A stretch of DNA of 64,000 nt from an uncultured Actinomycetota bacterium (GCA_963740925.1 CAVUFZ010000003.1:337605-401604), one strand, 5' to 3'; positions 28,947 through 58,447 are shown, counted from the first letter of the stretch. A program made the numbers and translations. Notes: a model not told the origin generated them from the sequence alone.

Positions 28947-29302
28947 CGGTTCTCCCTTGACCGTCGATCTGCGGTGGCGTCATCTGTAGCTGCTGCGTGA
29001 CAGATTGACTGCAGCTTGCATTAGTAGGCAGGACTTGCTTCTAACGTGTGGCTGTCCGTGCTGCGAGCATCCGGTAGCGCTTCCCGTTTTGTGGACGTTG
29101 CGCGCGATCGGGGTGGAGCCGGCGAACGAGCTGGACGCCCCGTCCGGTGGCCCTACTTCTATCCATAATGGCGCCATCCATATTGGCGCCATGGACAGTG
29201 ACGTCGCAGGAGTCCTGCCGGGTTTTGCCCGCAGTGCTCTCCCTCACACCGACATGAAGAAACAGATGTTCCCTCAGCCGGTCTGCTGCGCCACTTGCTC
29301 GA

Positions 29303-29346
29303 ACGCTAGGCGCAACAGGGCGTGCCGTCAACACTTTGTCCAAACA
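29303..29346 (-). promoter_or_regulatory. promoter TTGACG-N17-TAGCGT with adjacent IolR-like box TGTCCAAACA (29337-29346)
   Basis: -35 at 29326-29331 and -10 at 29303-29308; box lies 5 nt upstream of the -35. Confidence 0.55.
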
Positions 29347-29606
29347 AACTTTGAAGGAATGTCGGTGACGTTCTCCGAGGTAATGCGAGGTGTGAGCATC
29401 TGGACTCGAACCGACCCGTCCGGTCGTCGAATCGGTGTGGTGGTGGGAGCTGCGACCGAAGCCTGCTCGAGCGTGTCAGCGCCCGTAGCAGCAAGTTGGT
29501 CACGCCGGTTGCGCGGTGACACGAAGTCGCCTCGGCCGGAGTACGGCCGCACCGGACGTCGTGGGTGACGACGCCTCCGCCGTCTGTTCGCTGCGTCTTT
29601 GGTTCG

Positions 29607-34477: not shown

Positions 34478-34517
34478 CAGATTCTCTTTCCTGGTTGCGT
34501 TTGCGCTGAAGGAGGGC

Positions 34518-37314: not shown

Positions 37315-37380
37315 GAGAACGGAACTCCTTGGTCGAGAGGGGTTGGTCGAGCGGGGTCTTGTCGGAAGAAGTGAACCGGC

Positions 37381-39279: not shown

Positions 39280-39290
39280 CTCTGCCTCTC

Positions 39291-40163: not shown

Positions 40164-40173
40164 GGTCGCCTCC

Positions 40174-42083: not shown

Positions 42084-42165
42084 CGCTCTCCTTTGAATCG
42101 AGATCAGAATCGGGATCGAATAAAACGAGCTCGAAATGACGGATCTGAATCAGGCCCGTCGAACC

Positions 42166-42555
42166 TCACAGCTCACCGGTGAGGAACTGCGCGCGACCCA
42201 GGCCGAAGGACCAGTCATCCACTGTATTCGTACTGATCGAGACGACGAGATCCTGGGGTCGAAGTTCACACTGCGCTTCCAGCCGGAGGGCCAACTGCTC
42301 GTAGACCGCGACCTTCTGATCGCGTGACCGGCCCTGCTGAAAGATATGGATCACCGTGACCTCGCTGCTGCGGGTCAGGCCCAGGCCACTGTCGTCGGCG
42401 ATGATGTGGCCGACCGGATGCTCGGTGATGATCTGGTACCGGTCGTTCACCGGCGCCGCGAACACATCCACCATCACGTCTTGCACCACGTCCGCCAACC
42501 GTCGCAACTCGGCCGGTGACCGGCCCTGCTGAACATCGATCCGCACCAACGGCAC
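42166..42555 (-). CDS. tautomerase superfamily protein, malonate semialdehyde decarboxylase (MSAD)/IolK-like
   Basis: Pro-1 after Met removal; P.NDRYQ (Asp37), DSGLG..RS, QQGR (Gln73, Arg75) and DWSFG.GRAQFLTGEL. Confidence 0.82.
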   Translation of the reverse strand: MPLVRIDVQQGRSPAELRRLADVVQDVMVDVFAAPVNDRYQIITEHPVGHIIADDSGLGLTRSSEVTVIHIFQQGRSRDQKVAVYEQLALRLEAQCELRPQDLVVSISTNTVDDWSFGLGRAQFLTGEL

Positions 42556-42577
42556 AGCTGCCTCCCTCGACGACCCA

Positions 42578-42607
42578 ATTCTAGACTTTGTCAGGACATT
42601 AGATCAA
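42578..42607 (-). promoter_or_regulatory. iol operon promoter TTGATC-N18-TAGAAT with IolR-like box TGTCAGGACA in the spacer (42589-42598)
   Basis: Read directly upstream of the tautomerase start. Confidence 0.7.
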
Positions 42608-42679
42608 ACCAAGATCCTTCATGGTTCGGAGGCTGCGGCAGGCTCTCAGCGCTGGCGATCTGCCGCTCCGTCCGTTAGC

Positions 42680-43495
42680 TCAGCGCTGCAGCTCATGACT
42701 GAGCTCGGCGAGTTCGTCGCCGCCGGCCATCTGTCGGGTGAGTTCGTCCAGACCGACATCGGACCGCTTCTTGTCGAGCACCGCCTGGCCCAGCTTCAAG
42801 ATGATGAAGTGGTTGCCGACGAGATAGGCGTGGTGCGGGTTGTGGGTGATGAAGACCACGCCCAGGCCGGCGTCACGGGCCGCAGCGGTGTACTTCAGCA
42901 CCACCCCGGACTGCTTGACGCCGAGAGCAGCGGTGGGCTCGTCGAGGATCAACACCCTCGCTCCGAAATAGACCGCACGGGCGATGGCGACACATTGGCG
43001 CTGACCGCCGGACAGCTCGCCGATCGGCTGATCGATGTTCTTGACGACGATGCCCATCTTGCGCAGTTCTTCGTCCGCGATGCGCTTCATGTCCTTGGAC
43101 TTGAGTCCCGAGAGCGGGAACTTGCTGCCGGTCATTTCCGAGCCGAGGAAGAAGTTGCGCCACACCTCCATCAGTCCGACTACCGCCAGATCCTGGTACA
43201 CCGTGGCGATGCCGTGGGACAGCGCGTCCCGCGGGTTGCTGAAGGTCTGCGGCTTGCCGTCGATGAGCATCTCGCCCTCGTTGTGCGGATGCAAACCGGC
43301 CATGATCTTGATCAGGGTCGATTTGCCGGCCCCGTTGTCACCCAGGACGCAACTGACCTCACCCGCCTTGACGGTGAGATTGATGCCCTTCAGGGCTCGG
43401 ATGGCTCCGTAGCTCTTGCCCACGTTGCGCATCTGGATGAGCGACTCGCCATCGTGCAGTTCCGGGTCGGCGTGTTCGTGCAGCGTGTCAGTCAC
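42680..43495 (-). CDS. sugar (inositol) ABC transporter ATP-binding protein
   Basis: Walker A GDNGAGKST, LSGGQRQ and Walker B ILDEPT. Confidence 0.95.
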   Translation of the reverse strand: MTDTLHEHADPELHDGESLIQMRNVGKSYGAIRALKGINLTVKAGEVSCVLGDNGAGKSTLIKIMAGLHPHNEGEMLIDGKPQTFSNPRDALSHGIATVYQDLAVVGLMEVWRNFFLGSEMTGSKFPLSGLKSKDMKRIADEELRKMGIVVKNIDQPIGELSGGQRQCVAIARAVYFGARVLILDEPTAALGVKQSGVVLKYTAAARDAGLGVVFITHNPHHAYLVGNHFIILKLGQAVLDKKRSDVGLDELTRQMAGGDELAELSHELQR

Positions 43496-44563
43496 CTAAC
43501 CCACCTTTCTCGTCGTCGACAGTTTCTTCACGTAGAGGTTGACCAGCACGGCGAGCAGGAGCATGACGCCGAGGAAGGCCTTGAACCAGTTCGGGTCCCA
43601 GCCCGCGTAGACGATGCCGAGGTTGGTCATGCCGAAGATGAACGCCCCGATGGCGACACCCCAGGCGTTGCCGAACCCGCCCGTCATCAGCGTTCCGCCG
43701 ACCACAGCCGCGATGATGTAGAGGAATTCGTTCCCGACGCCGTTCCCGGCCTGCAGGGTGTTGAAGTTGTACAGGCTGTGCATGCCGATGAACCAGCCGA
43801 GGAACGACGTGGCCATGAAGAGCCCGATCTTCACCCGCCGGACGGGCACGCCCACGGCGCGGGCGCTGGCGGCATTGCCGCCGACGGCGTAGATCCAGTT
43901 GCCCATCCTGGTTCGCTGCAGGATGTAGCCGGACAACCCGACGAACACCAGCCACCAGATCACGGTCCCCCACACGGTGACGGGACCGACGTGGAAGCTG
44001 GAGGCGAAGATCGCGTGCAGGATGTTGTAACCGTCCATCTGGTTGATGTTGACGGTCGACACCGAGCCCGTGACCAACTTGGTCACACCGAGATTGGCTC
44101 CCTGCAGGACGAAGAAGGTGCCCAGGGTGATCAGGAAGCTCGGGATCCCTGTTCGCATCACGAGGTATCCGTTGACGAAACCGATGGCCAGGGCGAAGAC
44201 CAGGGAGAGAACGGCACCGACGATGAGGTTGATTCCCAGCTGGTAGCAGAACATCGCGTTCAGCAGACCGGCCGAGACGGGGACGACGCCGGCGGAGAGG
44301 TCGAATTCACCGCCGATCATCAGCATGCCGACCCCGACGGCCACGATGCCGATGGTCGAGGACTGATAGAGAACCGTGAAGAAGGAAGCGGGCGAACGGA
44401 AGGCCGGCGCGACGATCAGGAAGAAGATGAAGATCGCGATGGCCGCGACCAGTGCCCCGACCTCGGGGCGAGCAAGCAAACGGTTCGACAGACCAAGTGA
44501 CACCCGGTTCGATGATTCCGCCGGTGCCCCGGTGGGCGGTCGTGTCTGTACGGAATGACTCAT
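43496..44563 (-). CDS. sugar (inositol) ABC transporter permease (CUT2)
   Basis: GEFDLS, RTGIPSFLITLG, GNWIYAVGGN and AVVGGTLMTGG. Confidence 0.93.
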   Translation of the reverse strand: MSHSVQTRPPTGAPAESSNRVSLGLSNRLLARPEVGALVAAIAIFIFFLIVAPAFRSPASFFTVLYQSSTIGIVAVGVGMLMIGGEFDLSAGVVPVSAGLLNAMFCYQLGINLIVGAVLSLVFALAIGFVNGYLVMRTGIPSFLITLGTFFVLQGANLGVTKLVTGSVSTVNINQMDGYNILHAIFASSFHVGPVTVWGTVIWWLVFVGLSGYILQRTRMGNWIYAVGGNAASARAVGVPVRRVKIGLFMATSFLGWFIGMHSLYNFNTLQAGNGVGNEFLYIIAAVVGGTLMTGGFGNAWGVAIGAFIFGMTNLGIVYAGWDPNWFKAFLGVMLLLAVLVNLYVKKLSTTRKVG

Positions 44564-44635
44564 GAGTTGGCTCCGATTGACGAGGGTCGCACGGGCGGCC
44601 GGGACGCGATGGCCCCGGCCACCCGTTGCGGTGAC

Positions 44636-45631
44636 CTAGCGGGTGTTGTTCTTGGCGAACGGGAGGATGGTGTCGATGTTGGTGCTGTCGACGATGGACG
44701 GGCCGGTGAGCACGGGCTGACCGCCCCCGATGTCGTTGCCGTTCTTCTTGTACAGGTACAGCGAAGTGACGGCCATGAAACCCTGCACGTAAGGCTGCTG
44801 ATCGACCGAGAACTGGATCTGTCCGTCCTTGATCGCCTGCGCGGCGTCGACGTTCAGATCGAAGGTTGCCAGCTTGGCGCTGCTGCTCGACTGGCTGATG
44901 GCCTTGATCGCGTCGAGCGCGATCGGTGCCCCCAGCGTGACGATGTAGTCGATGGACTTGTCCTGGCTGAGCTTGGCCTGCAAGCTCGAGACCACCGAGG
45001 AGTCATCCGCCCCGTTGACCTGCAGGTTCTCGGTGTTCGAGAGGCCCTGCTTGACGCCGGCGCAGCGTGCTTCGAGCGCCACCGAACCGGAGGCCTGGAT
45101 GATGCACAGGCCGTGCTTGGCGCCTTCCGACGCCGCGCGCTTGCCGACGGTCTGCCCGGCGAGGGTCTCATCGGAGCCGAAGTACATCAGGGCTCCGACC
45201 GATTTGTACTCATCGATCCCGGAGTTGAACGCGACGACCGGGATGTTCGCCGACTTCGCGTTCTGGACCGCACCCTTGAGCGCGTCCGGCGTGGCCAGGG
45301 TGGTGGCGATGCCGTCGACCTTCGAGTCGACCGCGTTCTGGATCAGCGTGGACTGCTTGCTCGGGTCGGGGTCGTTGGAGTACTTCAGCGTGACGCCCTC
45401 GTTCTTGGCGGCCTGCTGGGCACCCGCCTTGATCTTGTCCCAGAAGGTGTCGCCGGGGGTCTCGTGGGTGACCATGGCAAAGGTGTAGCCGGAGCTGTCG
45501 CCGGCTCCCCCACTACCGCTGTTGTCGCTGGTGGAAGGAGCGGCGCCGCCGCCGCTGCACGCGGTGAGAGAAATGGCGGTTGCTGTGGCCAGGGCCAAGC
45601 CGGCCAGAAGCCGGGGACGTGGACGAATCAT
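44636..45631 (-). CDS. sugar (inositol) ABC transporter substrate-binding lipoprotein
   Basis: Lipobox SLTAC, VTHETPGDTFW and DQQPYVQG; RBS GAAAGG before ATG 45631. Confidence 0.92.
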   Translation of the reverse strand: MIRPRPRLLAGLALATATAISLTACSGGGAAPSTSDNSGSGGAGDSSGYTFAMVTHETPGDTFWDKIKAGAQQAAKNEGVTLKYSNDPDPSKQSTLIQNAVDSKVDGIATTLATPDALKGAVQNAKSANIPVVAFNSGIDEYKSVGALMYFGSDETLAGQTVGKRAASEGAKHGLCIIQASGSVALEARCAGVKQGLSNTENLQVNGADDSSVVSSLQAKLSQDKSIDYIVTLGAPIALDAIKAISQSSSSAKLATFDLNVDAAQAIKDGQIQFSVDQQPYVQGFMAVTSLYLYKKNGNDIGGGQPVLTGPSIVDSTNIDTILPFAKNNTR

Positions 45632-45879
45632 CGATGATCCTTTCGTGAGGTCGCAGGACCGCGACCGCGGGACAGGGGTGAATCCGCGAGAATGTGACCT
45701 CGCGGCCGCCACGAGCGGCCGGGGTCACGGGATCGCATGTCGGGGCCACCGAGCCGGTTGCCTTCGAGCGAACCGGCGGTCACCGACTGGCGCAGCACCG
45801 GAATCGCGATCCCGGTCAATGTCCCTGCACTCATCGATGAGCCCTCCACGTTGTCGTCGGCCGCGGTGCCGACGGGCTA

Positions 45880-47071: not shown

Positions 47072-47812
47072 TCAGGCGACCAGAGAGGCCTGGATGTGGT
47101 AGTCGGTGGCCCGGTAGATGTGCCGACCGGCCTCGACCACCCGGCCGGTGTCGTCATAGACCACCCGAGAGGCGGTCAGGCACGCGGCCGGGAGGGTCTC
47201 GGCCAGCAGTTCGGCTTCCGCCGGATCGAGCAGCCGGGCACCGACCTGCTGATGGGCGATGCGCAGATTGACCCCGAGTCTGCGCAGACATTCATAGAGC
47301 CCCCCCTGCTGCAACTCCTCGGCAGGAACCGCCCAACGGCTCGGCAGGTAGTTGGTCAGAATGGCCAATGGGTGCCCGTCGGCCGAGCGCAGTCGCCTGA
47401 TCCGGAGGACGCGTTCGTCCTCCGAGGCCAGCTCCTGGGGGGCGTTGCCGAGATCGACCCAGTGGTAGGCGAGCAGTTGCGTGCCCGGAGTCCGGCCGGC
47501 AGTGACCAGGTCGTCCTGCAGGCTGGTCAACCGCTCTTCGCGGCTGAAGCTCCGCGGCACCACCTGGGTACCGACACCCCGTTTGCGCACCAGCAGACCT
47601 TTACGGACCAGCTCCTGGATCGCCTGCCGCGCGGTCGGCCGTGACAGACCCAGCCGAGCGGTCAGCGACATTTCGTTCTCCAGCCGCTCTCCGGGCGCGA
47701 GCGTGCCGTCGGCAATCGCGCTCTCGATGGACTGCGCCAGTTGGTGGTAGAGCGGCACCGGCGAGCTGCGCTCGAGGGCGATCTCGAGCTGCCGGGCATC
47801 CGATCGCGACAT
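47072..47812 (-). CDS. iolR: GntR (HutC subfamily, UTRA domain) regulator, IolR-like
   Basis: SPVPLYHQL, LGLSRPTARQAI and LLVRKRGVGT followed by a UTRA domain; embedded in the iol cluster. Confidence 0.8.
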   Translation of the reverse strand: MSRSDARQLEIALERSSPVPLYHQLAQSIESAIADGTLAPGERLENEMSLTARLGLSRPTARQAIQELVRKGLLVRKRGVGTQVVPRSFSREERLTSLQDDLVTAGRTPGTQLLAYHWVDLGNAPQELASEDERVLRIRRLRSADGHPLAILTNYLPSRWAVPAEELQQGGLYECLRRLGVNLRIAHQQVGARLLDPAEAELLAETLPAACLTASRVVYDDTGRVVEAGRHIYRATDYHIQASLVA

Positions 47813-47838
47813 AGCCACAGTATGGCGCCGATGCTGCT

Positions 47839-47848
47839 TGTTCGTACA
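47839..47848. promoter_or_regulatory. IolR-like box TGTTCGTACA between gntR and usp
   Basis: TGT-N4-ACA box in an AT-rich divergent intergenic region. Confidence 0.5.
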
Positions 47849-47894
47849 TAATGACAAGACTTGTTTGTCCAACCGTCTTGATCGGAGTTCGCAG

Positions 47895-48332: not shown

Positions 48333-49352
48333 GTGCCTGAGCGGGGAGGCCGAGGGGTCTCCGGTCGGGTCACGCTCGAGCAGGTGGCGCGGCACGCCGG
48401 GGTGTCCCGGGCCCTGGTCTCGATCGTGATGCGGGACGCCCCCGGGGCCAGTACGTCCACCCGTGACCGGGTGCGGGCGGCCGCGGCCGAACTGGGTTAT
48501 CGACCGGACGTGCGGGCCCGCGCGCTGGCCGGGCAGAGCTCACGCCTGATCGGGGTGATGTTCGGCGTCGGCGCCGGAACCTTCCACTTCGACCTGCTGG
48601 AAGGTCTCTACCAGGCCGCCGAGGCCCGTGATCTGAACCTGCTGTTGACCGCGGTCACGCCGCGGCGAAACGAACAGAAAGCGGCAGAATCCCTACAGGG
48701 CTTCAGTTTCGACGGGTTGATCATGCTCGGGCCGCCCACCGGGCAGCCGCTGCTGGCGGGGCGGGTGCCGGTCGTCGTCGTCGGCTGGCAGGTCGACGAT
48801 CCGGCGGTCGACGTGGTCAGAACCTCCGACACCGAGGGGATGTCGGCCGCACTGGCGCACCTGGTCGAGCTGGGACATCGCCGGATCGCCCATCTGGACG
48901 GGGGCTCGAGCGTGATCGCAAAGGCGCGTCGCGAGGCCTACGTCCAGCAGATGCAGGTCGCCGGGTTGGGGGCGAACGTAAGAGTCGTACCGGGTGGGCA
49001 GAGCCAGCTTGACGGCCAGCACGCCGCCCACACACTGCTCGGCGAACCCGACCGGCCCACGGCGCTGATCTGCTACAACGACGACACGGCCGCGGCCGCG
49101 ATCAGCGTCTTCGCCCAGCAGGGCCTACGGGTTCCCGTCGACATCTCGGTGCTCGGCTGGGACGACAACGAGGCCGCGGCCCTGGCTCCGGTGCGACTGA
49201 CCAGCGTGGCCCAGCACCCGCACGAACTGGCCCGGCTGGCGGTGGCGCGGATCGCGGCCCGGAGGCAGCACGATCTCGTCGAGCCGCGCGACGTCGTGCT
49301 GTCACCGGAGCTGCGAGTTCGCGACAGCACGTCGGCGCCGCCACCGGCCTGA
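48333..49352 (+). CDS. LacI family transcriptional regulator (start uncertain)
   Basis: VTLEQVARHAGVSRALVS, LGYRPD..AR.L, ICYNDDTA, VPVDISVLGWDD and LTSV. Confidence 0.93.
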   Translation: MPERGGRGVSGRVTLEQVARHAGVSRALVSIVMRDAPGASTSTRDRVRAAAAELGYRPDVRARALAGQSSRLIGVMFGVGAGTFHFDLLEGLYQAAEARDLNLLLTAVTPRRNEQKAAESLQGFSFDGLIMLGPPTGQPLLAGRVPVVVVGWQVDDPAVDVVRTSDTEGMSAALAHLVELGHRRIAHLDGGSSVIAKARREAYVQQMQVAGLGANVRVVPGGQSQLDGQHAAHTLLGEPDRPTALICYNDDTAAAAISVFAQQGLRVPVDISVLGWDDNEAAALAPVRLTSVAQHPHELARLAVARIAARRQHDLVEPRDVVLSPELRVRDSTSAPPPA

Positions 49353-49403
49353 TCTCGTCAGGCACGCACGGTCGAGGCGAGGGCCGGGATCGATCTCGAC
49401 CCG

Positions 49404-49445
49404 CTCGTCACAGATCAAGCACCACTCGTCACAGATCAAGCACCA
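49404..49445. repeat. perfect 21-bp tandem duplication of the P450 gene 3' end
   Basis: ctcgtcacagatcaagcacca at 49404-49424 and 49425-49445. Confidence 0.9.
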
Positions 49446-51663
49446 ATTGTGGCGTCCTGGCCCGGGACACACAGATCATCATGCAGGTGCCGGCGGACTG
49501 CTCCTGCGGATCGAGCACCGAGTCGCGGTGATCGGCGACCCCCTCGACGATTCTCACCTCGCAGGTGCCGCAGGTGCCCTCGGCGCAGGACGACAACACC
49601 CCGACACCCGCTTCCTCCACGACGGAGAGGATCGAGCGCTCGGGCGGCACGGTCAGGGTGAGACCGCTCCGACGCAGCTTCACGGTGAACGCGTCCGAAC
49701 GCGCAGGCTCCGCGAGGGGTTTGGCCGCGAACCGCTCGACGTGGAGTGCGCCGCGGGGCCAGGGACCGACCCGTTGTTCGACAGCGGCCAGCAGCGGCTC
49801 GGGACCACAGCAGTAGACCAGGGTGTCCGCCCGCGGTGTCGACAGCAACGAGTCCAGATCGAGCAGGCCCGATTCGTCCTGCGGTCGTACCGACACCCGG
49901 TCGCCGTAACCGGCCAGCTCGTCGAGGAACGCCATCGACGCTCGCTGTCGACCGCCGTAGACCAACTGCCACTCTCGCCCACCGGCTTCGGCCGCTCTGA
50001 TCATGGCCAGGATGGGGGTGATACCGATACCGCCGGCGATGAACAGGTAGCGCGGAGAGTCGATCAGCCGGAAGTGGTTGCGAGGCCCGCGAACGCCGAC
50101 GGTGTCTCCGATCTCGAGCCGGTCGTGGACGAAAAGTGACCCGCCGCTGCCGAGCGGGTCACGCAACACCCCGATTCGCCAGCGCTCCCCGTCGGCGGGA
50201 TCTCCGCACAACGAGTACTGCCGGGTCGGGGCGTCGGGCAGCACCAGGTCGATGTGGGCGCCCGCTGACCACGGCGGTAGCACCTGGCCGTCGGCGGCGC
50301 GCAGGGTCAGCGCGACCACCCCGTCGGCGAGGACCTCCTTGGCCTCGACGATCGCCCCGGCCTCGAACTCCTCGGTCCGGCCGGTCAGGTCCGCACCGAG
50401 CTGCTCGCCACGGTCGACCGCAGCGGCCGTCTGCGCGTCCTCCGGGGCTGCGTCGAACCGCACCGGCAGAGCCGACCAGACGTACATGTTGGGCGTCGTC
50501 TTGTAGCGCACGGCCGAGCCGTCGATGCGGTAGTCCCCCAGGACCGGCAGCGCCTCCTCCAGAGCGACCTTCACCTCCAGCCGAGCCAGCGGTGCGCCGA
50601 GACAGCCGTGCATCCCCTCGGAGAATCCGAGGTGCCGGGTGACCCCGCGACGGATGTCGAACCGGGTCGGGTCGGCAAAGCGACGCTCGTCGCGGTTGGC
50701 CGCCCCGTAGACGAGGACGACACGGCCGCCGGCCGGAATCGTCACCCCGTGGATCGTCACCTCCCGGGAGGTGGTCCGCCCGGCGAGCTGGAGCGGGGTG
50801 GCGACGCGGATCGCCTCCTCCACCGCGGCCGGGATGAGGGCGGGATCCTCGTGCAGCAGGGCTCGCTGATCGGGATTCTCGGCCAACAGTTTCAGCACCG
50901 TCGCGGTCAATCCGGCCGTGCTCTCCACCCCGCCGAGAAACAACACCATCATCAGACCGAGGATCTCCGAGGCGGGCTCGAGGTGTTCCTCGGCGAACGG
51001 GACACCGCCGATCTCGGCGTTGACCAGATGGGTGACCAGATCGGGACGCGGGTGGCGGCGGCGCTCGGCCAGCAGGTCGATGAAGTAGCGCTGGATGCCT
51101 TCGGTCGCCGCCTTGGCGACGGGGGTCAGACGTGCGTCGTCGGGCCGGCGGTCCTTGAGCTCGTGGATCCACCGTTCGAGTTGCTCTCGGCCCTGCTCGC
51201 GGGCGCTGGGTAGCCCGAGCACGTTGAAGAACACCTCGTTGGGCATCGGCCAGGCGAGTTCGCTCGCCACGTCCACCGTGCCGCGAGTACGCCAGGGATC
51301 GATGAGCCCGCGGACCACCGCACGGATGCTCTCCTCCTGCTGGGCGATCCGGCGCGGCAGGAACCACGGCTGGACCACGGCCCGAACCTGGTCGTGGCGC
51401 GGGTTGTCCAGGTCGGGCAGGAATCCCGGACCGCTCTGGTCCTTGGCCGTGTCGTCGATGTCGATGCCCTGATAGCTGAGGAAAAGGCTCGGATCGAGCG
51501 CGGCCGCCCGGACGTCATCGAATCTCGACAGCGCCCACCAGTTCCATTTCTGACTGTAGAAGACCGGCGACTCGTCACGCATCCACTGGTAGACGGGGAA
51601 CGGATCGGCCTGGAACTCGGCGCTGAACGGGTCGTATTCCATCGCCGTGGGCGTTGTGGTCAT
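49429..51663 (-). CDS. self-sufficient cytochrome P450 fused to a phthalate-dioxygenase-type reductase (FMN/NAD(P)H/2Fe-2S)
   Basis: 744 aa single ORF: I-helix GGVEST, EEAIR, heme FSEGMHGCLG (Cys at 50602-50604), then RQYSLC, IAGGIGITP, YCCGP and CAEGTCGTC...ICVSR. Confidence 0.95.
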   Translation of the reverse strand: MTTTPTAMEYDPFSAEFQADPFPVYQWMRDESPVFYSQKWNWWALSRFDDVRAAALDPSLFLSYQGIDIDDTAKDQSGPGFLPDLDNPRHDQVRAVVQPWFLPRRIAQQEESIRAVVRGLIDPWRTRGTVDVASELAWPMPNEVFFNVLGLPSAREQGREQLERWIHELKDRRPDDARLTPVAKAATEGIQRYFIDLLAERRRHPRPDLVTHLVNAEIGGVPFAEEHLEPASEILGLMMVLFLGGVESTAGLTATVLKLLAENPDQRALLHEDPALIPAAVEEAIRVATPLQLAGRTTSREVTIHGVTIPAGGRVVLVYGAANRDERRFADPTRFDIRRGVTRHLGFSEGMHGCLGAPLARLEVKVALEEALPVLGDYRIDGSAVRYKTTPNMYVWSALPVRFDAAPEDAQTAAAVDRGEQLGADLTGRTEEFEAGAIVEAKEVLADGVVALTLRAADGQVLPPWSAGAHIDLVLPDAPTRQYSLCGDPADGERWRIGVLRDPLGSGGSLFVHDRLEIGDTVGVRGPRNHFRLIDSPRYLFIAGGIGITPILAMIRAAEAGGREWQLVYGGRQRASMAFLDELAGYGDRVSVRPQDESGLLDLDSLLSTPRADTLVYCCGPEPLLAAVEQRVGPWPRGALHVERFAAKPLAEPARSDAFTVKLRRSGLTLTVPPERSILSVVEEAGVGVLSSCAEGTCGTCEVRIVEGVADHRDSVLDPQEQSAGTCMMICVSRARTPQLVLDL

Positions 51664-51757
51664 CGGTGATCCTTCTCTCCAGCTCGGTGCGAGTGCTGCG
51701 CCCGGCCCCACCTGGTCCGGACGAAGTTTCCAGGACGCGTGCAGGACGACCTTCGCC

Positions 51758-51809
51758 TTGACACCCGCCGCGCAATGTTCATACCCTGACATCTCCTAGA
51801 GCGCTCTAG
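51758..51809. promoter_or_regulatory. promoter TTGACA-N18-TACCCT (+) and perfect LacI-type palindrome CTAGAGCGCTCTAG (51796-51809)
   Basis: 14-bp perfect palindrome with central CG between the divergent P450 and isomerase genes. Confidence 0.75.
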
Positions 51810-51870
51810 CAAGTGCCGCCCGGCAACAGCTCGATGATCAGCTCGATAATCAGACGGTAGGAGCAGTCCG

Positions 51871-52872
51871 ATGAAGTTCGGTGTCTACAACGCGATTCTG
51901 CACGACCGGAGCCTGCCCGAGGCGCTGAGCGTGATCGGCGGGCTCGGCCTGAGTGGGATCGAGCTCAACTCCGGCGGCTTCCTGCCGGCCACCCACATCC
52001 CGACCTTCGACGACATCCTCACCTCCGACGACGCGCGGGACGACTTCCTCGGCCAGTTCGAGGGCACCGGGGTCGAGATCGCCGGGCTCAACTGCAACGG
52101 CAACCCGCTGCACCCCGACCCCACGATCGGCGATGCGCACGCCGAGGACGTCCGGCGCAGCATCCGGCTGGCCCATCGGCTGGGCCAGACCCGGGTGGTC
52201 ACGATGTCCGGGCTGCCGGCTGGTGAGCCGGACGCGACCCGGCCCAACTGGATCGTCAACGCCTGGAACTCCAGCGCGCTCGACGTACTGGACTATCAGT
52301 GGAGCGTGGCCGAGACCTTCTGGCGCGAGATCGACCGGGAAGCGGCCGACCTGGGCGTCAAGGTCGCCCTGGAGCTGCACCCGCAGAACCTGGTGTTCAA
52401 CCCGGCCGGCATCCGTGAGCTGGTGGAACGGACCGACGCCACCCATATCGGCGTCGAACTGGACGCCTCGCACCTGTTCTGGCAGTGGATGGATCCGGTC
52501 GCCGTGGTCCAGGATCTCGGCCCGCTGGTTTTCCACGCCGCCGCCAAGGACGTCAGGATCAACCCGGCGGCGGCGGTGTACGGCGTGCTCGACAACCGGT
52601 TCCGGAAGCTGTCACCGGAGGAGAAGCGGACCAACCTCGGCGGGGACGAGTGGGCCAACGAGTGGCCGGCGAACGCCGCCTGGGACTTCGTCGCCCTCGG
52701 TCGCGGTCATGACGCCGTCTACTGGTCGACCTGGCTGGCCGCGCTGGCTGCCGTCGACCCCGAGATGGCCGTCAACATCGAGCACGAGGACACCTCACTC
52801 GGCGCGGTGGAGGGCCTGGAGATGGCCGCCGGCGTGCTGCTGGACGCGGCCCGACGGGCCGGCCTGGCCTGA
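51871..52872 (+). CDS. TIM-barrel sugar phosphate isomerase/epimerase (resembles C. glutamicum Cg3390)
   Basis: MKFGVYNAILHDR, LNCNGNPLHP, VVTMSGLP, LELHP, ELDASHLFWQ, HAAAKD and NIEHED. Confidence 0.85.
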   Translation: MKFGVYNAILHDRSLPEALSVIGGLGLSGIELNSGGFLPATHIPTFDDILTSDDARDDFLGQFEGTGVEIAGLNCNGNPLHPDPTIGDAHAEDVRRSIRLAHRLGQTRVVTMSGLPAGEPDATRPNWIVNAWNSSALDVLDYQWSVAETFWREIDREAADLGVKVALELHPQNLVFNPAGIRELVERTDATHIGVELDASHLFWQWMDPVAVVQDLGPLVFHAAAKDVRINPAAAVYGVLDNRFRKLSPEEKRTNLGGDEWANEWPANAAWDFVALGRGHDAVYWSTWLAALAAVDPEMAVNIEHEDTSLGAVEGLEMAAGVLLDAARRAGLA

Positions 52873-52900
52873 GACCCGACCTGCCCGGGCACAGCCCGGG

Positions 52901-54121
52901 TCAGCCGAGCGGGACCCATCGGCGCTCGGCCGCCGAGGTCGCCATCGCGTCGACCACCCGGGCCACGCTCAGTGCGTCCTCGATCGTCGCACCGGAGACG
53001 ATGCCGGTGCTGATCGAGGTCAGCAGCCGGCGGGCCTCGATCACCTTCAGGTCGTCATAGCTCATCGAGGTCGCCGAACCCGGCTGGAAGACCCGGTACT
53101 CGCCGTCGCCGGGCCGGGCCAGCCGGGTCTGGGTGAACGCGTCGGTGTAGCCCTGATCGAGGCAGACCTGCAACTCCCCCATCCGGCGGAAATCCCAGGC
53201 CAGCGAGCCGCGGTCGCCGTGCACCTCGATGCCGTAGCGGTTCTGGTCGCCGACGGAGACCCGGCTCGATTCGAGCGTCCCGCGGGCCCCGCCGGCCAGC
53301 CGCAGCAGCGCCGAGACGTGATCCTCGTTCTCCACCGGGCCGGGTTCACCGGTGCCGACCGCGCCGTGACCGGTGCTGGCCGCGGCGAGCCGGCGCCGTT
53401 GCGGGATGAAGATCGCGGTGTCGGCGACCACCTCCTCGACCTCGCCGACGACGTAGCGGGCCAGGTCGACGCCGTGGCTGACCAGGTCGCCCAGCACCCC
53501 AGAGCCCGCCCACTGGTTCTCATACCGCCAGGTCAGGGCGCCGTCGGGATCGGCGGCGTAGTCGGAGCAGAAGGTGATCCGGACCGTCTCGATCCGGCCG
53601 AGCCGCCCGTCGGCCACCAGCCCGCGGGCCGCCTCGACCGCCGGCGCGTTGCGGTAGTTGAAGCCGGCGGCGCTCTGCACCCCGGCCTCGGCCACCGCGG
53701 CCGCGATCTCCGCGGTCTCCCCGCTGTTGCGTCCGGCCGGCTTCTCGATCCACAGGTGTTTGCCGGCCCGGGCCACGGCCACGCCGACGTCGCGGTGGAC
53801 GAAGTTCGGCCCGGTCACGCTGACCAGGTCGATGTCGTCCCGGTCGACCAGCTCACGCCAGTCGGTGTGCACGTCGGCGAAGCCGTAGGCCTCGACCGCA
53901 GCCCGCAGTCGTTCGTCGGTGGCGTTGTCGGCCACGGCCACGAACTCGATCGGTGCGTTGTCCGGGTAGTACTGCCGGACCCTGCTGTAGGCCCGGGAAT
54001 GCACTTGGCCCATCCAGCCGAAGCCGACGACGCCGACCCGGATCGGACGGATCCGCTCGGCCGCAGCAGGATCGACAGCAGGATCGACAGCAGCAGGATC
54101 GACGGCGGGGTCGACAGTCAT
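52901..54121 (-). CDS. Gfo/Idh/MocA oxidoreductase
   Basis: GVVGFGWMGQVH, IEKP, GFNYR and GVLGDLVSHGVD; N-terminal VDPA repeats. Confidence 0.9.
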   Translation of the reverse strand: MTVDPAVDPAAVDPAVDPAAAERIRPIRVGVVGFGWMGQVHSRAYSRVRQYYPDNAPIEFVAVADNATDERLRAAVEAYGFADVHTDWRELVDRDDIDLVSVTGPNFVHRDVGVAVARAGKHLWIEKPAGRNSGETAEIAAAVAEAGVQSAAGFNYRNAPAVEAARGLVADGRLGRIETVRITFCSDYAADPDGALTWRYENQWAGSGVLGDLVSHGVDLARYVVGEVEEVVADTAIFIPQRRRLAAASTGHGAVGTGEPGPVENEDHVSALLRLAGGARGTLESSRVSVGDQNRYGIEVHGDRGSLAWDFRRMGELQVCLDQGYTDAFTQTRLARPGDGEYRVFQPGSATSMSYDDLKVIEARRLLTSISTGIVSGATIEDALSVARVVDAMATSAAERRWVPLG

Positions 54122-54164
54122 GATCAGGATCTCCGAAACGTCGTGCGGGTTGAGAAGCGGCTGC

Positions 54165-55181
54165 TCAGCCGCGGCTGCGCAGCTCGTCCAGCCGGACCGG
54201 ACGGTGCTCGCGCCAGGACAAGGTGGCGGCCTCGGCGACCCAGCTGGCCTCCAGCCCGTCGACCACCGTGCACGGGGTCGGCCGCTCGCCCGCGACCACC
54301 TCGCAGAAGGCGGCCATCTCGGCAGCGAAGGCGGTGGCCAACCGGTCCATGAAGAAGGTGTGGGCCGGACCGGGCGGGAATTCGGTGGCCGGATCGGCCG
54401 AGCGCATCGGCAGCCCGGCGTCCAGGCCGGCGGCGATCGAGCCGTCCGAGCCGTGCAACTCCAACCGGACGTCGTAGCCCTCGGCGTTGTAGCGGGTGTT
54501 GGAGACCACGCCGATGGCCCCGTCGTCGAAGGTCAGCAGGGTGGAGGCCGTGTCGGCGTCGCCGAGCTCGGTGAACCACTTCTCACCGCGGTTCGAGCCG
54601 ACCGCATAGACCTCGACCACCTCGCGGCCCGACGCCCAGCGGACGGCGTCGAAGTCGTGGATGGCGCAGTCGTGGAAGATGCCGCCGGAGCGGGCGATGT
54701 AGGCCGCGGGCGGCGGCGCCGGATCCATGGTGGTGGAGCGGATGGTGGACAACCAGCCGAGCTCACCGCCGTCCAGGGCGGCCTTGGCGGCGACGAACGC
54801 CGGGTCGAAGCGCCGCGGGAAACCGATCTGGACGCTGACCTGGGAGTCGGCGACGAAACCGGCCAGATCCGCGGTGGCGTAGGGATCCCCGGAGACCGGC
54901 TTCTCACAGAAGGTGGTGATGCCGGCGCCGACGCTGGCCCGCAGCAACTCCAGGTGGGAGTCGGTGGAGGAGGCGATCAGGACGCCGTCCACCCCGGCGG
55001 CCAGCAGCGCCTCCGGGGAATCGGCGACGCTGACCGAGGTGCCGCTGAGCCGTCCGGCCGCCTGCTCGGCGACGCCGGGCACGACGTCGGCCAGCACCAG
55101 CTCGTCCACCCGCTCCAGACCGCTGAGCGTGGTGGCGTGGTACGCCCCGATCCGACCCAGCCCGATGATGCCGATCCGCAT
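54165..55181 (-). CDS. Gfo/Idh/MocA inositol dehydrogenase-like oxidoreductase
   Basis: GIIGLGRIG, FCEKP, QIGFPRRFD and SGGIFHDCAIHDFD. Confidence 0.9.
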   Translation of the reverse strand: MRIGIIGLGRIGAYHATTLSGLERVDELVLADVVPGVAEQAAGRLSGTSVSVADSPEALLAAGVDGVLIASSTDSHLELLRASVGAGITTFCEKPVSGDPYATADLAGFVADSQVSVQIGFPRRFDPAFVAAKAALDGGELGWLSTIRSTTMDPAPPPAAYIARSGGIFHDCAIHDFDAVRWASGREVVEVYAVGSNRGEKWFTELGDADTASTLLTFDDGAIGVVSNTRYNAEGYDVRLELHGSDGSIAAGLDAGLPMRSADPATEFPPGPAHTFFMDRLATAFAAEMAAFCEVVAGERPTPCTVVDGLEASWVAEAATLSWREHRPVRLDELRSRG

Positions 55182-55263
55182 TGACCCACTCCCCGTTCGT
55201 CGACCCGGCCGTGGAGACTCTCCGGCGGCCCAGCGCCCGCTCGTGCGGACGCTCACCTCATGT

Positions 55264-55273
55264 TGTCAGGACA
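55264..55273. promoter_or_regulatory. IolR-like box TGTCAGGACA upstream of the dehydrogenase at 55181
   Basis: Identical 10-mer to the box at 42589-42598. Confidence 0.6.
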
Positions 55274-55305
55274 AACCCGGACCTGCCAAGCGCACTCGCC
55301 GGTGC

Positions 55306-56085
55306 TCAGTCGTGCGCACCGGGGACGTTCTGGTCCCAGTCGATCACCGATCCGGTCACCACGCCGCTGTCGGGTGAGAGCAGCAGGACGGCCAACCGGG
55401 CCACCTCGTCCGGTTCGATCAGCTGCCCCATCGGCAACCGGTCGGCCGCCTGATCGGCCCAGCCGTCCTCGGCCTGGTGGAACCGGCGCTGGATCTCGTC
55501 CTCGCCCTCGGTCCGGGTCCAGCCGAGGTTGATCCCGTTCACCCGGATCTTGTCCCAGCGGTGAGCATGGGCGACGTTCTTGGTCAACCCGATCAGCCCG
55601 GCCTTGGTCGCGGCGTAGGCGGCCAGATAGGGCTGACCGCCGAGCGCGCTCATGGTGATCACGTTGACGATCGACCCGGCCGCCTCACGACGGAGCAGAT
55701 CGGCCACCACCGCCTGCATCAGGAAGAACGGACCGCGCAGGTTGACCGCGACGTGGTCGTCGAACAACTCCGGCGTGGTCTCCAGCAGCGTGCCCCGAGT
55801 CGTCAGCCCGGCCGCGTTCACCAGGCCGTCCACCCGGCCGAACCGCCGCACCAGCTCGGCCACCACCGTGCGTCCGGACTCGACGTCACCGGCGTCGCCG
55901 GCCAGATAGACGGCCTCGGCGGAGCCTGCCGCACGCAGTTCTTCGACCGCGGCCTCACCCCGCTCGGCACGTCGGCCGGTGACGGCCACGGTGGCCCCGG
56001 CACGGGCGGCGGCCCGGCCGATGGCCAGACCGACACCCTGGGTGCCGCCGCTGATCAGGATCACCTTGTCGTTCAGGTCAGCCAT
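55306..56085 (-). CDS. short-chain dehydrogenase/reductase
   Basis: ISGGTQGVG, LVNAAG and catalytic YAATK. Confidence 0.93.
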   Translation of the reverse strand: MADLNDKVILISGGTQGVGLAIGRAAARAGATVAVTGRRAERGEAAVEELRAAGSAEAVYLAGDAGDVESGRTVVAELVRRFGRVDGLVNAAGLTTRGTLLETTPELFDDHVAVNLRGPFFLMQAVVADLLRREAAGSIVNVITMSALGGQPYLAAYAATKAGLIGLTKNVAHAHRWDKIRVNGINLGWTRTEGEDEIQRRFHQAEDGWADQAADRLPMGQLIEPDEVARLAVLLLSPDSGVVTGSVIDWDQNVPGAHD

Positions 56086-56093
56086 CGGGCGGG

Positions 56094-57311
56094 TCAGATC
56101 TCGTCGGTACGGTGCCGGACGCCGTAGCCGTCCAGATCGGCCTGCAGCTGGTCGGCGCTGGCCTCAGCGGCCAGCGACTGCTCCAGCAGGGCCGCCTGGG
56201 ACAGCGGAGTCAGGCCGTCCACGTTGTGGTCCAGATCGAGGTTGGTGGGGAACGGGTACCCCTCGGCGGCGCAGGCGATCGCGTTGTGCAGCAGGGAATC
56301 CGCGACCCCGGCCGCCCGGCGGGACTGCAGCGCCGGATAGATCGCACGGCTGATCTTGGCCCGGTCGACGCTCTCCATCGCCCGGCCGAAGGCGGAGGAA
56401 ACCTGCAGCAGGTTGGCCATCCGCTGCACGTCGGTGGAGACGTTGTTGCCGGCCCCGTGGAACAGCGCGGGGTTGAAGAAGGCGGCGTCGCCCTTGGCCA
56501 AGGGCAGCTGGACGTAGTGGTGGTTGAAGTAGTCCCGGAATTCGGGCCGCCGCCAGGCCAGGTAGCCCGGGCCGTAGGTGTGGGAGTAGGGCAGATACAT
56601 CGTCGGGCCGCTCTCCACCGGCATGTCGGAGTGCGCGACCGCCCCCTGCAGGGTGAGGACGGGCGAGAGCAGATGGACGTGCGCCGGGTAGCTCGCCGCG
56701 ACCTCGTTGGAGAGGAAGCCGAGATGGTAGTCGCGGTGCGGATCCTGGGCCTTGCCGCCGGGCCGGACCTGGTTGACCTGGGACGTCAGCTGAAAACCGG
56801 GGCCGAGCCAGGCGGTGCTGATCAGCGCCAGCAGTTCGTTGCCGTAGTAGTCGACGAATGTCTCGGGATCACGGACGGCCAGCTTCTCCAGCGCGTTCCA
56901 GACCCGGTCGTTGGCCCCGGCCTTGGCGAAGTGGTCGTTGCCACCGCCCCCGTGCTCTGCGGCCGCGGCCTTCTCGTCGGCGATGATCGCGTCGAAGGCG
57001 GCGGTGGCCCGGTCGACGACCGACGTGTCGGCGAAGGCGCCCTTCAGGGCGACGATGCCGGGCCCTTCGGTCAGCGCACGGACGAGCTCGGCCTCGACGG
57101 CCTGACGCCCTTGGACCGAAGCGAGCTCGCGGCGCAGCCGGGCGCTGTCGTAGACCAGCACGTTCTGGACGACGTCGGCGGCGAACGGGTAGTCCGTCAC
57201 CTCGGTGCGTCGATCGAGGGAGGCGACGAACTCATCCAGCCGGCAGTCGTCTTCGGTGAAACGGCCGGGGATGGTGGTGGCCGCGGACGGGGTGGGTGCG
57301 GTAGTGGTCAT
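56094..57311 (-). CDS. phytanoyl-CoA dioxygenase (PhyH) family Fe(II)/2-oxoglutarate-type dioxygenase
   Basis: Facial triad PHRDYH...FHGAG; TAGGCT -10 lies 7 nt before the ATG. Confidence 0.85.
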   Translation of the reverse strand: MTTTAPTPSAATTIPGRFTEDDCRLDEFVASLDRRTEVTDYPFAADVVQNVLVYDSARLRRELASVQGRQAVEAELVRALTEGPGIVALKGAFADTSVVDRATAAFDAIIADEKAAAAEHGGGGNDHFAKAGANDRVWNALEKLAVRDPETFVDYYGNELLALISTAWLGPGFQLTSQVNQVRPGGKAQDPHRDYHLGFLSNEVAASYPAHVHLLSPVLTLQGAVAHSDMPVESGPTMYLPYSHTYGPGYLAWRRPEFRDYFNHHYVQLPLAKGDAAFFNPALFHGAGNNVSTDVQRMANLLQVSSAFGRAMESVDRAKISRAIYPALQSRRAAGVADSLLHNAIACAAEGYPFPTNLDLDHNVDGLTPLSQAALLEQSLAAEASADQLQADLDGYGVRHRTDEI

Positions 57312-57433
57312 GTCCGAAAGCCTAGAGAATCCGGCCCGGGCGATACGATGCGAAAACCATCAAAAAGACCTCAGGCGGTCCGCTCCCGGTTCCAGGTCCG
57401 GGTCGACCGAAACGCTTGGACAAGGGGCGAACC

Positions 57434-58447
57434 GTGCATCGACACCGGATCCGGACCATCGCCGAGCAGGCTGGGCTGAGCGAGGCCACCGTGGACCGGG
57501 TGCTGAACGGGCGTCCCGGGGTCCGGGCGTCCACCGTGGCCGAGGTGGGCCGGGCCGTCGACGAACTCGACCGGCAACGCGACCAGATCCGACTCGGCAA
57601 GCGCCGGTTCCTGATCGATCTGGTGATGCAGGCCCCGGCCCGGTTCAGCTCGGTCGTCCAGCGCGCGCTGGAGGCCGAACTGCCGAATCTGGCCCCGGCG
57701 GCGATCCGCTGCCGCTTCCACCTCCGCGAAGAGGGCCGGCCGGCTGACGTCGCCGAGGTGTTGGCCCGGGTCGGTCGTCGCGGCTCGGCCGGTGTCCTGC
57801 TGAAGGCACCCGACGATCCCCGGATCGTCGAGGCGGTGGATTCTCTGCAGCAGCAGGGAATCCCGGTGGTCACCCTGGTCACCGATCTGGTCGACAGCCG
57901 GCGGGTCGGCTATGTCGGCATGGACAACCGGGCCGCCGGCGCGACCGCCGGCTATCTGATGCACCACCTGTCTCCCGACCGGTCGCGCGGCGTGCTGATC
58001 ACGCTGAGCCGGACCAGCTTCCGCGGCGAGGAAGAACGAGAAGCCGGCTTCCGGGCCCTGCTCGCCGAGCTCGAGCCGGAACGGCCGGTGGTCGAGGTGA
58101 CCGAGACCGACGGGCTGGACACCGTCCTGCTGCGGATGGTGTCGGTGGCCCTGGCCGAGCATCCCCACCTCGGCGCCGTCTACTCCGTCGGCGGCGGCAA
58201 CCTCGCCATCCTGGAGGCGTTCCGGCAGGCCGGCCGTCGAGCCGATCCGTTCCTGGCCCACGATCTGGACGCCGACAACCGGGCGCTGCTGCGGCAACGT
58301 CGGATCACCGCCGTGCTGCATCACGATCTGCGCGCCGATCTCCGGTCAGCCTGCCAGCTGGTGCTTCGGGTACACGGCGCGTTACCCGGTCCGCCGCTCG
58401 CTTCGCCATCCGCGATCCAGGTGGTGACCCCGTTCAACGCCCCGTGA
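57434..58447 (+). CDS. LacI family transcriptional regulator
   Basis: IRTIAEQAGLSEATVDRVLNGR, YVGMDN.AAG and HDL; divergent from the PhyH operon. Confidence 0.9.
   Translation: MHRHRIRTIAEQAGLSEATVDRVLNGRPGVRASTVAEVGRAVDELDRQRDQIRLGKRRFLIDLVMQAPARFSSVVQRALEAELPNLAPAAIRCRFHLREEGRPADVAEVLARVGRRGSAGVLLKAPDDPRIVEAVDSLQQQGIPVVTLVTDLVDSRRVGYVGMDNRAAGATAGYLMHHLSPDRSRGVLITLSRTSFRGEEEREAGFRALLAELEPERPVVEVTETDGLDTVLLRMVSVALAEHPHLGAVYSVGGGNLAILEAFRQAGRRADPFLAHDLDADNRALLRQRRITAVLHHDLRADLRSACQLVLRVHGALPGPPLASPSAIQVVTPFNAP

Follow-up and report, generated by a model that had tools for sequence, protein, structure and literature searches.

What does a repressor-controlled oxygenase add to a bacterium that already encodes a complete pathway for inositol catabolism? 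The question is raised by a module of five genes at positions 52901–58447 of a 64,000-nucleotide stretch of DNA from an uncultured Actinomycetota bacterium (GCA_963740925.1, CAVUFZ010000003.1:337605-401604; hereafter, the window), which has a GC content of ~70%. An earlier note on this DNA had described four co-oriented genes running from 57311 to 52901, an 8-nt gap between the first two, which encode a PhyH-family oxygenase and a short-chain dehydrogenase/reductase (SDR), and a divergent LacI-family gene. All five genes were present at these coordinates and in the families named, as judged by Pfam, and the spacing was likewise borne out. On balance, we read the module as an accessory cyclitol-processing unit of the inositol regulon, in which an oxygenase/reductase cassette would feed inositol dehydrogenases and, through them, the iol pathway. 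The argument draws on the enzymes themselves, the recurrence of their gene order among bacteria, and two regulatory motifs in the module.

Enzymes of the module

The first gene of the string (56094–57311, minus strand; 405 aa, P0001) encodes the oxygenase, which matched PF05721 at 113.4 bits (cutoff, 22 bits) over residues 84–297. Its sequence contains the facial triad HxD...H and a basic residue for the C5 carboxylate of 2-oxoglutarate (2OG), in the form of H192-R-D194, H285, and R297. In an alignment of 32 sequences reaching down to 35% identity, His285 was retained in all 32, His192 and Asp194 in 30, and Arg297 in 28; His196, His227, and Asp275 were also invariant, and many polar residues were conserved. 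We propose His192, Asp194, and His285 as the metal ligands and Arg297 as the 2OG-binding residue. The AlphaFold model of the protein (predicted local distance difference test score, pLDDT, of 93.3) displays the double-stranded β-helix fold, and a Foldseek search returned 297 PDB matches at E ≤ 0.001, the top ones all being PhyH-type oxygenases. The closest solved folds were those of TlxJ, AndA, EasH, PrhA, and KanJ, with 15–24% identity and template modeling scores (TMt) of 0.6–0.68. Helical extensions at the N- and C-terminal ends are peculiar to the ~400-aa PhyH subfamily to which the protein belongs.

When solved structures were searched by sequence, the oxygenase gave only weak matches to fungal meroterpenoid oxygenases, among which the TlxJ and PrhA alignments cover the HRD...H region. 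No NCBIfam family matched the protein at E ≤ 1e-5, and the sole match at E ≤ 10 was unrelated (12 bits). An identity as EctD was rejected despite the common label "ectoine hydroxylase-related", as no NCBIfam EctD model matched even at E ≤ 10. The nearest relatives, at 74–76% identity, belong to Microlunatus, Friedmanniella, and other Propionibacteriaceae, and the family is large and highly conserved, with more than 8000 close relatives scored and ~350 clusters at 50% identity with E < 1e-30. The fusion partners of long homologs (multicopper oxidase, HET, and rhodanese) look like eukaryotic gene-model joins and were set aside as functionally uninformative.

Eight nucleotides (56086–56093) separate the PhyH stop codon from the start of the second gene, which encodes a classical SDR (55306–56085, minus strand; 259 aa), and the two genes are probably translationally coupled. 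The SDR matched adh_short_C2 in Pfam at 175 bits and PRK06198 in NCBIfam at 376 bits (cutoff, 240 bits). Its translation reads the motifs of the classical family, namely TGxxxGxG (ISGGTQGVG) and YxxxK (YAATK), along with VTGRR after β2. The TGRR at this position suggests use of NADP(H), which would make the SDR a probable ketoreductase partner of the oxygenase.

Two Gfo/Idh/MocA dehydrogenases complete the string, their genes 43 nt apart with a GGAG Shine-Dalgarno sequence in the gap. The first (54165–55181, minus strand; 338 aa) is IolG-like: TIGR04380 (IolG) was its best-scoring family, at 308.5 bits and under the 355-bit equivalog cutoff, and its top solved relatives were all inositol dehydrogenases (4hkt at 206 bits, 3euw, and 4n54). 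Both the catalytic lysine of the EKP motif (FCEKPV) and the DxxxH dyad (HDCAIHDFD) are present. The longest open reading frame (ORF) reaches a GTG at 55256; most likely, however, translation starts at the ATG at 55181 (MRIGIIGLGRIG), which is preceded by GGGGAG. This start leaves a 124-bp intergenic region between the SDR and Gfo genes, within which lies the IolR-type box described below.

The final gene of the string (52901–54121, minus strand; 406 aa) encodes a member of the levoglucosan/scyllo-inositol-dehydrogenase clade. It scored 287.8 bits against NF052479 (levoglucosan dehydrogenase), far under the 650-bit cutoff, and its PDB matches included 6a3f at 242 bits and 5ya8 (scyllo-inositol/L-glucose dehydrogenase) at 182 bits. 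The Streptomyces ortholog is located upstream of the cassette, outside the PhyH operon, and is divergently paired with a LacI339-like gene, so the position of the 406-aa gene at the end of the string in the window appears to be a local arrangement. The window counterpart of the LacI339-like regulator faces a P450 fusion and a TIM-barrel gene instead (48333–54121). Two repressor-controlled units thus adjoin in the window and in Streptomyces (L036, L043, L052, L057, and others), but in shuffled form.

Recurrence of the gene order in actinobacteria

One genome per species was scanned (488 relatives), and 80 actinobacterial loci were retained with 10-kb flanks. Neighboring genes were scored by tblastn with the window proteins and by de novo ORF clustering; two distant representatives were on contigs too short for a view of their neighbors. 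Among the 80 loci, the divergent LacI gene (LacI343) was found in 61, an SDR gene adjacent to PhyH in 47, an IolG-like gene after PhyH or the SDR gene in 43, and iolC/iolD/aldolase genes within 10 kb in 23. The corresponding counts were 32, 28, 29, and 17 for the 32 Streptomyces loci and 29, 19, 14, and 6 for the 48 loci from other actinobacteria.

The order of a divergent LacI gene followed by PhyH, SDR, and IolG-like genes recurs in Streptomycetales, Propionibacteriales, Kineosporiales, and Micrococcales, and the synteny of the module is far beyond chance. Intergenic gaps are short, at 8 nt in the window and with 4-nt overlaps elsewhere. Other recurring partners were a Gfo gene (cluster c7), TIM barrels (c27 and c26), and an IolE-like TIM barrel (c81). 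At one locus (L003), PhyH comes first, then an IolG-like gene and a TIM barrel, and after these an ABC importer homologous to the iol importer of the window. The earlier note had staked its proposal on a linkage between PhyH homologs and iol genes, and the 23 loci with such genes within 10 kb bear this out. Because the cassette is often found alone, we regard the linkage as frequent rather than obligatory or defining.

Homologs outside actinobacteria and a paralog behind a cyclitol synthase

Plasmid- and megaplasmid-borne homologs with 47–59% identity were found in Agrobacterium, Rhizobium, Sinorhizobium, Neorhizobium, Ralstonia solanacearum, Caballeronia, Pantoea, Shinella, and marine Rhodobacterales. 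In Rhizobium, Agrobacterium, Ralstonia, and Pantoea, the divergent LacI–PhyH pair (56–59% identity) comes with the direct repeat that we call motif A (see below). All proteobacterial loci that were opened had the divergent LacI gene, except that of Shinella. PhyH is followed by a Gfo gene in Agrobacterium and by an SDR gene in S. meliloti, where it adjoins bluB; the SDR gene precedes it in Pantoea, with a 9-nt gap; and in Ralstonia the LacI–PhyH pair stands by itself. An enterobacterial locus joins the pair to an IolG-like gene, a binding protein, a TIM barrel, and a second Gfo gene, and the Shinella oxygenase (L098) lies between two sugar ABC importers, adjoining iolE and Gfo genes. The divergent LacI–PhyH pair, with or without the SDR, is an autonomous cassette present in several phyla, often without iol neighbors.

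Two of these loci have further genes in common. The enterobacterial (L089, 568–9146) and Shinella (L098, 13151–18835) regions each encode an aldehyde dehydrogenase, an HpcH/HpaI aldolase, and a 2-hydroxyacid dehydrogenase in addition to Gfo and TIM-barrel genes, and these gene sets may specify a lower pathway different from the canonical IolD/B/C route. On a conjugative plasmid of Tritonibacter scottomollicae (L097, 4079–7642), LacI and PhyH occur without further partners, flanked by IS5 elements and a DDE transposase fragment, an arrangement suggesting that the two-gene cassette is horizontally mobile as a unit.

A paralog with 47% identity to the window oxygenase (P0133) is encoded directly after a ValA-like 2-epi-5-epi-valiolone synthase (4p53, 263 bits) and a DegT aminotransferase. 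Downstream of it are an IolG-like gene (56% identity), a c7 Gfo gene (61%), and a c27 TIM barrel (58%), with a GT8 glycosyltransferase gene inserted among them. The placement of this four-protein module behind a cyclitol synthase suggests that it was recruited there to a cyclitol scaffold. The surrounding region (L082, 1158–16182; NCBI CP109149.1, from a 10.4-Mb actinobacterial genome) encodes the ValA-like cyclase, the DegT aminotransferase, PhyH, two Gfo dehydrogenases, and GT8, as well as a ThiF/rhodanese gene, a PIG-L deacetylase, a TIM barrel, a nonribosomal peptide synthetase (NRPS) condensation domain, and a peptidyl carrier protein–thioesterase. It looks like an undescribed cyclitol biosynthetic cluster. 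A ThiS gene was called at the corresponding position in a sister contig (L083), and the ThiS/ThiF sulfur-carrier pair hints at a thio-cyclitol product.

Regulatory signals

The regulator gene (57416–58447, plus strand) is divergent from PhyH, and its start is probably the GTG at 57434 rather than the codon at 57416. Its product combines a LacI-type helix-turn-helix domain (PF00356, 31.3 bits; cutoff, 27) with a Peripla_BP_4 sensor domain (83 bits). Between the two genes lies motif A (TGAGGTCTTTTTGATGG; 57357–57373, minus strand), a direct repeat of the form TGAKG-N6-TGAKG, which has its sole copy in the window here against 0.02 expected. Motif A is located upstream of PhyH in 58 of the 80 actinobacterial loci, where it reaches 2.25 sites per kb compared with 0.004 per kb elsewhere. 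It also adjoins the LacI start in five proteobacterial loci (L093 at 8864, L094 at 8869, L095 at 8876, L096 at 8016, and L097 at 5094) and is missing where the LacI gene is missing (L082 and L098). We regard motif A as the probable operator of the divergent regulator, overlapping the −35 region of the PhyH promoter. This pairing of regulator and motif we infer, as we do the substrate class and reaction type considered below.

LacI-family regulators normally bind palindromes. The LacI–PhyH intergenic regions contained no conserved palindrome with a central CG, and the conserved element was the direct repeat. Such a repeat is an unusual operator for this family, and motif A is kept from Actinobacteria to Alpha-, Beta-, and Gammaproteobacteria. 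A TTGTCnnGACAA box was also considered as the LacI operator and rejected, as outside Streptomyces it does not occur in the LacI–PhyH regions, unlike motif A. At 57319–57324 (minus strand), the hexamer TAGGCT is −10-like by consensus resemblance only, and the intergenic regions of orthologs have TAGCGT, TAGTGT, or TAGGCT at a constant spacing from motif A. The location of the hexamer 7 nt ahead of the PhyH ATG suggests a leaderless or near-leaderless mRNA. A simple scan for promoters and terminators gave nothing above chance.

A second signal, motif B, lies between the SDR and IolG-like genes. The IolR-like box that the earlier note had placed at 55264 is real: TTGTCAGGACAA (55263–55274) is an exact palindrome with a 2-nt center, situated ~87 nt upstream of the IolG-like ATG and overlapping a putative promoter, TTGGCA-N18-CAACAT (55289–55260, minus strand). 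The wider pattern, TTTGTCNNRACA, has four copies in the window against 0.01 expected, and none of 100 shuffles reached four. These are found at 29335, upstream of the gene for an MFS sugar transporter; at 42587, within the iol operon ahead of an MSAD-like gene and iolC; at 45912, in the promoter region shared by the divergent genes for the ABC binding protein and a 345-aa Gfo protein; and at 55264, ahead of the IolG-like gene. Since it always occurs beside inositol-type genes, TTTGTCNNRACA is probably the IolR operator, and the site at 55264 matches the pattern found at the iol promoters of its own genome. A GntR/UTRA regulator encoded at 47072–47872, the presumed IolR, would bind the box at 55263–55274. 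The box also fits what we take to be the IolR consensus of C. glutamicum.

The same signal recurs in Streptomyces, where 24 loci have a TTGTCAGGACAA-type box 37–55 nt upstream of PhyH and the promoter that separates iolC from the ABC binding-protein gene contains a close variant. A box common to iol promoters, together with a dedicated LacI-type regulator, would wire the module into the inositol regulon while giving it a sensor of its own. Four genes had been taken as a single operon in the earlier note; the genes and their common orientation stand, but there are probably two transcription units, one comprising PhyH and SDR under the LacI motif and the other comprising the two Gfo genes behind the IolR box.

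Proposed pathway and competing explanations

As an accessory unit of the inositol regulon, the module could work as follows. The oxygenase would attack a ring C–H of a plant or microbial cyclitol that is either substituted or deoxy; candidates are O-methyl-inositols (e.g., pinitol), inosamines, and deoxy-inositols/carbasugars. Its product would be an inosose, released with loss of methanol/formaldehyde or ammonia, or a ring bearing a new hydroxyl group. The SDR would reduce the ketone and so fix the stereochemistry, following the logic of KanJ and KanK, after which the inositol dehydrogenases would oxidize the resulting inositol isomer to scyllo-inosose. This intermediate would enter the IolE/D/B/C/aldolase/IolA route encoded at 33001–42555. 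The KanJ/KanK-like logic is suggested by the tight coupling of oxygenase and SDR genes in either gene order and by the NADP(H)-type SDR, and the cyclase-linked paralog hints at hydroxylation of a ring methylene as an alternative. Regarding the reaction type, we assign about one third of the weight to ring hydroxylation of deoxy- or carba-cyclitols, somewhat under one third to O-demethylation, about one sixth to deamination, and the rest to other chemistry.

The cyclitol route into the iol pathway that the earlier note had put forward is strengthened by the iol gene set 10–20 kb away, the synteny, the shared box, and the P0133 module; its comparison with KanJ holds at the level of the fold only. 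Also in favor of the cyclitol reading are the Shinella locus with its sugar importers, iolE, and Gfo genes, the homologs of plant-associated Proteobacteria with their LacI partner and motif A, and the co-regulation of a PhyH gene, a putative ortholog, with inositol genes in Ensifer adhaerens (see below). With rather less confidence, we suggest that the ~400-aa PhyH subfamily may be an unrecognized class of cyclitol oxygenases. It may give bacterial inositol-type catabolism its first 2OG-dependent step, opening methyl-, amino-, or deoxy-cyclitols (e.g., pinitol) to the iol pathway. The subfamily travels as a LacI–PhyH(–SDR) cassette with a probable direct-repeat operator, which soil actinobacteria have in common with plant-associated Proteobacteria; in fungi, homologs of the oxygenase alone are found.

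Several observations weigh against a role in cyclitol processing. Full-text literature searches found no substrate for any member of the subfamily, and the oxygenase has no close solved structure and no NCBIfam family. Among actinobacteria other than Streptomyces, only the 6 of 48 loci counted above have iolC/iolD/aldolase genes within 10 kb; the Ralstonia, Pantoea, S. meliloti, and Tritonibacter loci are without adjacent iol genes; and fungal homologs (38–44% identity) occur in unrelated contexts. The window locus is without a dedicated transporter of its own. A P450–reductase fusion encoded 1 kb away is an equally good demethylase candidate, which weakens the case for O-demethylation by PhyH, and the better match of the 406-aa protein to levoglucosan dehydrogenase makes a non-cyclitol pyranose possible.

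This last point leads to the broader proposal that the substrate is a sugar-like metabolite from plants or pyrolysis, such as an anhydro-, deoxy-, or 3-keto-sugar or a glycoside, and that the proximity of iol genes stems from the common use of Gfo/Idh/MocA and TIM-barrel enzymes. The levoglucosan dehydrogenase scores of the 406-aa protein (NF052479, 288 bits; 6a3f, 242 bits), the many cassettes without iol neighbors, the sugar-sensing LacI/PBP type of the regulator, and the aldehyde dehydrogenase, HpcH/HpaI aldolase, and 2-hydroxyacid dehydrogenase set of the enterobacterial and Shinella loci, which is typical of sugar-acid routes, are all consistent with it. We nevertheless consider a non-cyclitol substrate unlikely. 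The commonest adjacent gene is IolG-like, with inositol dehydrogenases as its best solved relatives throughout; the IolR-type box is common to iol promoters and the IolT-like transporter gene; a paralogous module is found behind a cyclitol synthase; and the 406-aa protein also matches 5ya8, with its 288 bits remaining far under the 650-bit cutoff for levoglucosan dehydrogenase. Rather than an external substituted cyclitol, the oxygenase and SDR might salvage or bypass an inosose or deoxy-inosose that arises as an intermediate or side product of myo-inositol catabolism. The IolR-type box of the module fits such a role, as does the lack of a transporter with the cassette in the window and most proteobacterial loci. 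In an Ensifer adhaerens transcriptome, moreover, a PhyH gene is among the few that change together with iolG, iolC, and an inositol ABC transporter (PMC6637203), with myo-inositol as the sole cyclitol in the medium; this gene is a putative ortholog, which lessens its weight. The cassette, however, has a LacI-type sensor to itself, separate from IolR, and this speaks for a separate inducer; none of its genes is needed to complete the canonical pathway encoded in the window; and some genomes couple the cassette to ABC importers of its own. Salvage therefore appears improbable to us.

That the module instead tailors a cyclitol for a secondary metabolite or cell-envelope component seems very improbable. 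The L082 paralog does occur among a cyclitol synthase, an aminotransferase, GT8, ThiS/ThiF-type proteins, and NRPS-type domains, and a GT2 glycosyltransferase gene and an LCP-family gene lie just beyond LacI in the window. The window locus and its orthologs, however, have no cyclase, aminotransferase, or glycosyltransferase gene inside the unit, carry a sugar-type repressor, and have importers and catabolic iol genes alongside, and the GT2 and LCP genes are not conserved neighbors. Oxidoreductase genes are plentiful in high-GC actinobacterial genomes, and four of them could come to stand side by side by chance with no common function. We give this almost no credence: it is contradicted by the synteny, with a gene order that recurs in four actinobacterial orders and partly in Proteobacteria, and by the short intergenic gaps (8 nt, or 4-nt overlaps elsewhere).

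Inositol genes and other surroundings in the window

The window contains a full iol gene set on the minus strand (33001–45712), 10–20 kb from the module. Its order begins with genes for an IolA-type aldehyde dehydrogenase, a TIM barrel, IolG (B. subtilis type), and IolE-like, IolD, and IolB proteins, and continues with a Cgl0159-type aldolase, IolC, a small MSAD-like protein, and an ABC importer (ATPase, permease, and binding protein). At 42680–45712, the longest ORFs are on the plus strand (42695–44500, 601 aa; 44555–45637, 360 aa) and have no Pfam match; analysis of GC content at third codon positions places the true genes on the minus strand, encoding the ABC ATPase (271 aa), permease (355 aa), and binding protein (358 aa). 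Beyond the importer are a further Gfo gene and the GntR/UTRA regulator gene introduced above.

Between the iol cluster and the module are a second LacI-family gene (48333–49352), the P450–reductase fusion (49429–51792), and a TIM-barrel gene. A perfect palindrome, CTAGAGCGCTCTAG, is located at 51796–51809 and is the sole copy in the window even when three mismatches are allowed. The MFS transporter gene (27516–28946, minus strand; Sugar_tr, 364 bits) has its box copy at 29335–29346, ~390 nt from the start codon, within a 660-bp stretch upstream of the gene (28947–29606) that has a lower GC content and no family-supported gene. The gene probably encodes an IolT-like inositol transporter and would have either an unusually long leader or an unannotated element upstream of it.

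Relation to known systems

One solved PhyH-type enzyme is KanJ (6s0r and 7cl5), which acts with the NADPH-dependent reductase KanK in kanamycin biosynthesis. It shares with the window protein the PhyH fold, the HxD...H triad, and an immediately adjacent gene for an NAD(P)H reductase, and it carries out a C–X to C=O to C–OH conversion, with its partner, on a polyhydroxylated aminoglycoside. The two oxygenases have 18% identity, and KanJ ranked 18th in the Foldseek search with a TMt of 0.63, no closer than the fungal meroterpenoid oxygenases. No KanJ-specific sequence relationship was detected, as phmmer gave no match at E ≤ 0.01. The window protein is also ~120 residues longer, with extra helical parts, and its context is catabolic and repressor-controlled, in contrast to the biosynthetic cluster of KanJ. 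KanK is likened to the SDR by description.

The closest functional precedent is rhizopine catabolism. In the Sinorhizobium moc system (mocABCDEF/mocR), an oxygenase unmasks 3-O-methyl-scyllo-inosamine, and MocA (Gfo/Idh/MocA) and MocC (a TIM-barrel, IolE-like protein) pass the product to IolG, IolE, and the subsequent steps. By description, this is likewise an accessory module in front of the iol pathway. It differs in its hydroxylase, which is Rieske/ferredoxin-dependent (MocD/E/F) rather than 2OG-dependent, and in its regulator, MocR, which is of the GntR-aminotransferase type rather than LacI.

The funnel of Bacillus subtilis (IolG, IolX, IolW, and IolI) offers a parallel for the later steps. 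There, scyllo- and D-chiro-inositol are converted to scyllo-inosose by TIM-barrel isomerases and by several Gfo/Idh/MocA dehydrogenases that differ in stereospecificity and in the cofactor they use. TIM barrels found with orthologous modules gave a weak match to IolI (1i60, E = 1.6e-4). The funnel has neither an oxygenase nor an SDR, and the IolG-like protein of the window scores under the TIGR04380 cutoff. For the oxygenase chemistry, VldW, a 2OG dioxygenase, reportedly converts validamycin A to validamycin B by hydroxylating its cyclitol ring (a finding attributed to Almabruk et al., 2012). It would be a precedent for 2OG-dependent hydroxylation of a C7-cyclitol ring methylene, likened here by description rather than sequence, and it acts in biosynthesis. 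EctD is also a 2OG dioxygenase of the PhyH superfamily that acts on small polar substrates; its length and extensions differ, and no ect genes are near the window oxygenase.

Full-text literature searches returned no paper that assigns a function to the PhyH cassette, and no solved structure or curated family does so either. A Klebsiella PhyH gene has been described in an unrelated phosphotransferase system locus (PMC6020474), and the one study of pinitol that the searches found reported no bacterial demethylase (PMC9788770). The parts of the module are of known kinds, namely a PhyH oxygenase, an SDR, inositol dehydrogenases, and a LacI repressor, and their combination is an uncharacterized, widely conserved variant on the theme of an accessory module before the iol pathway.

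Substituted cyclitols, including pinitol, ononitol, quercitols, and inosamines, rank among the soluble carbon compounds that are most abundant in legumes, conifers, and root exudates. To our knowledge, few bacterial enzymes that remove cyclitol substituents have been described, and we know of none assigned to the demethylation of pinitol. If the cassette supplies such a missing step, it would give a function to thousands of proteins annotated as "phytanoyl-CoA dioxygenase family" and would reveal an oxygen-dependent branch of the inositol pathway, along with a sensor/operator pair for a plant cyclitol. Should the substrate prove to be other than a cyclitol, the cassette would still represent a conserved, mobile, and repressor-controlled oxygenase/reductase pair in plant-associated bacteria.

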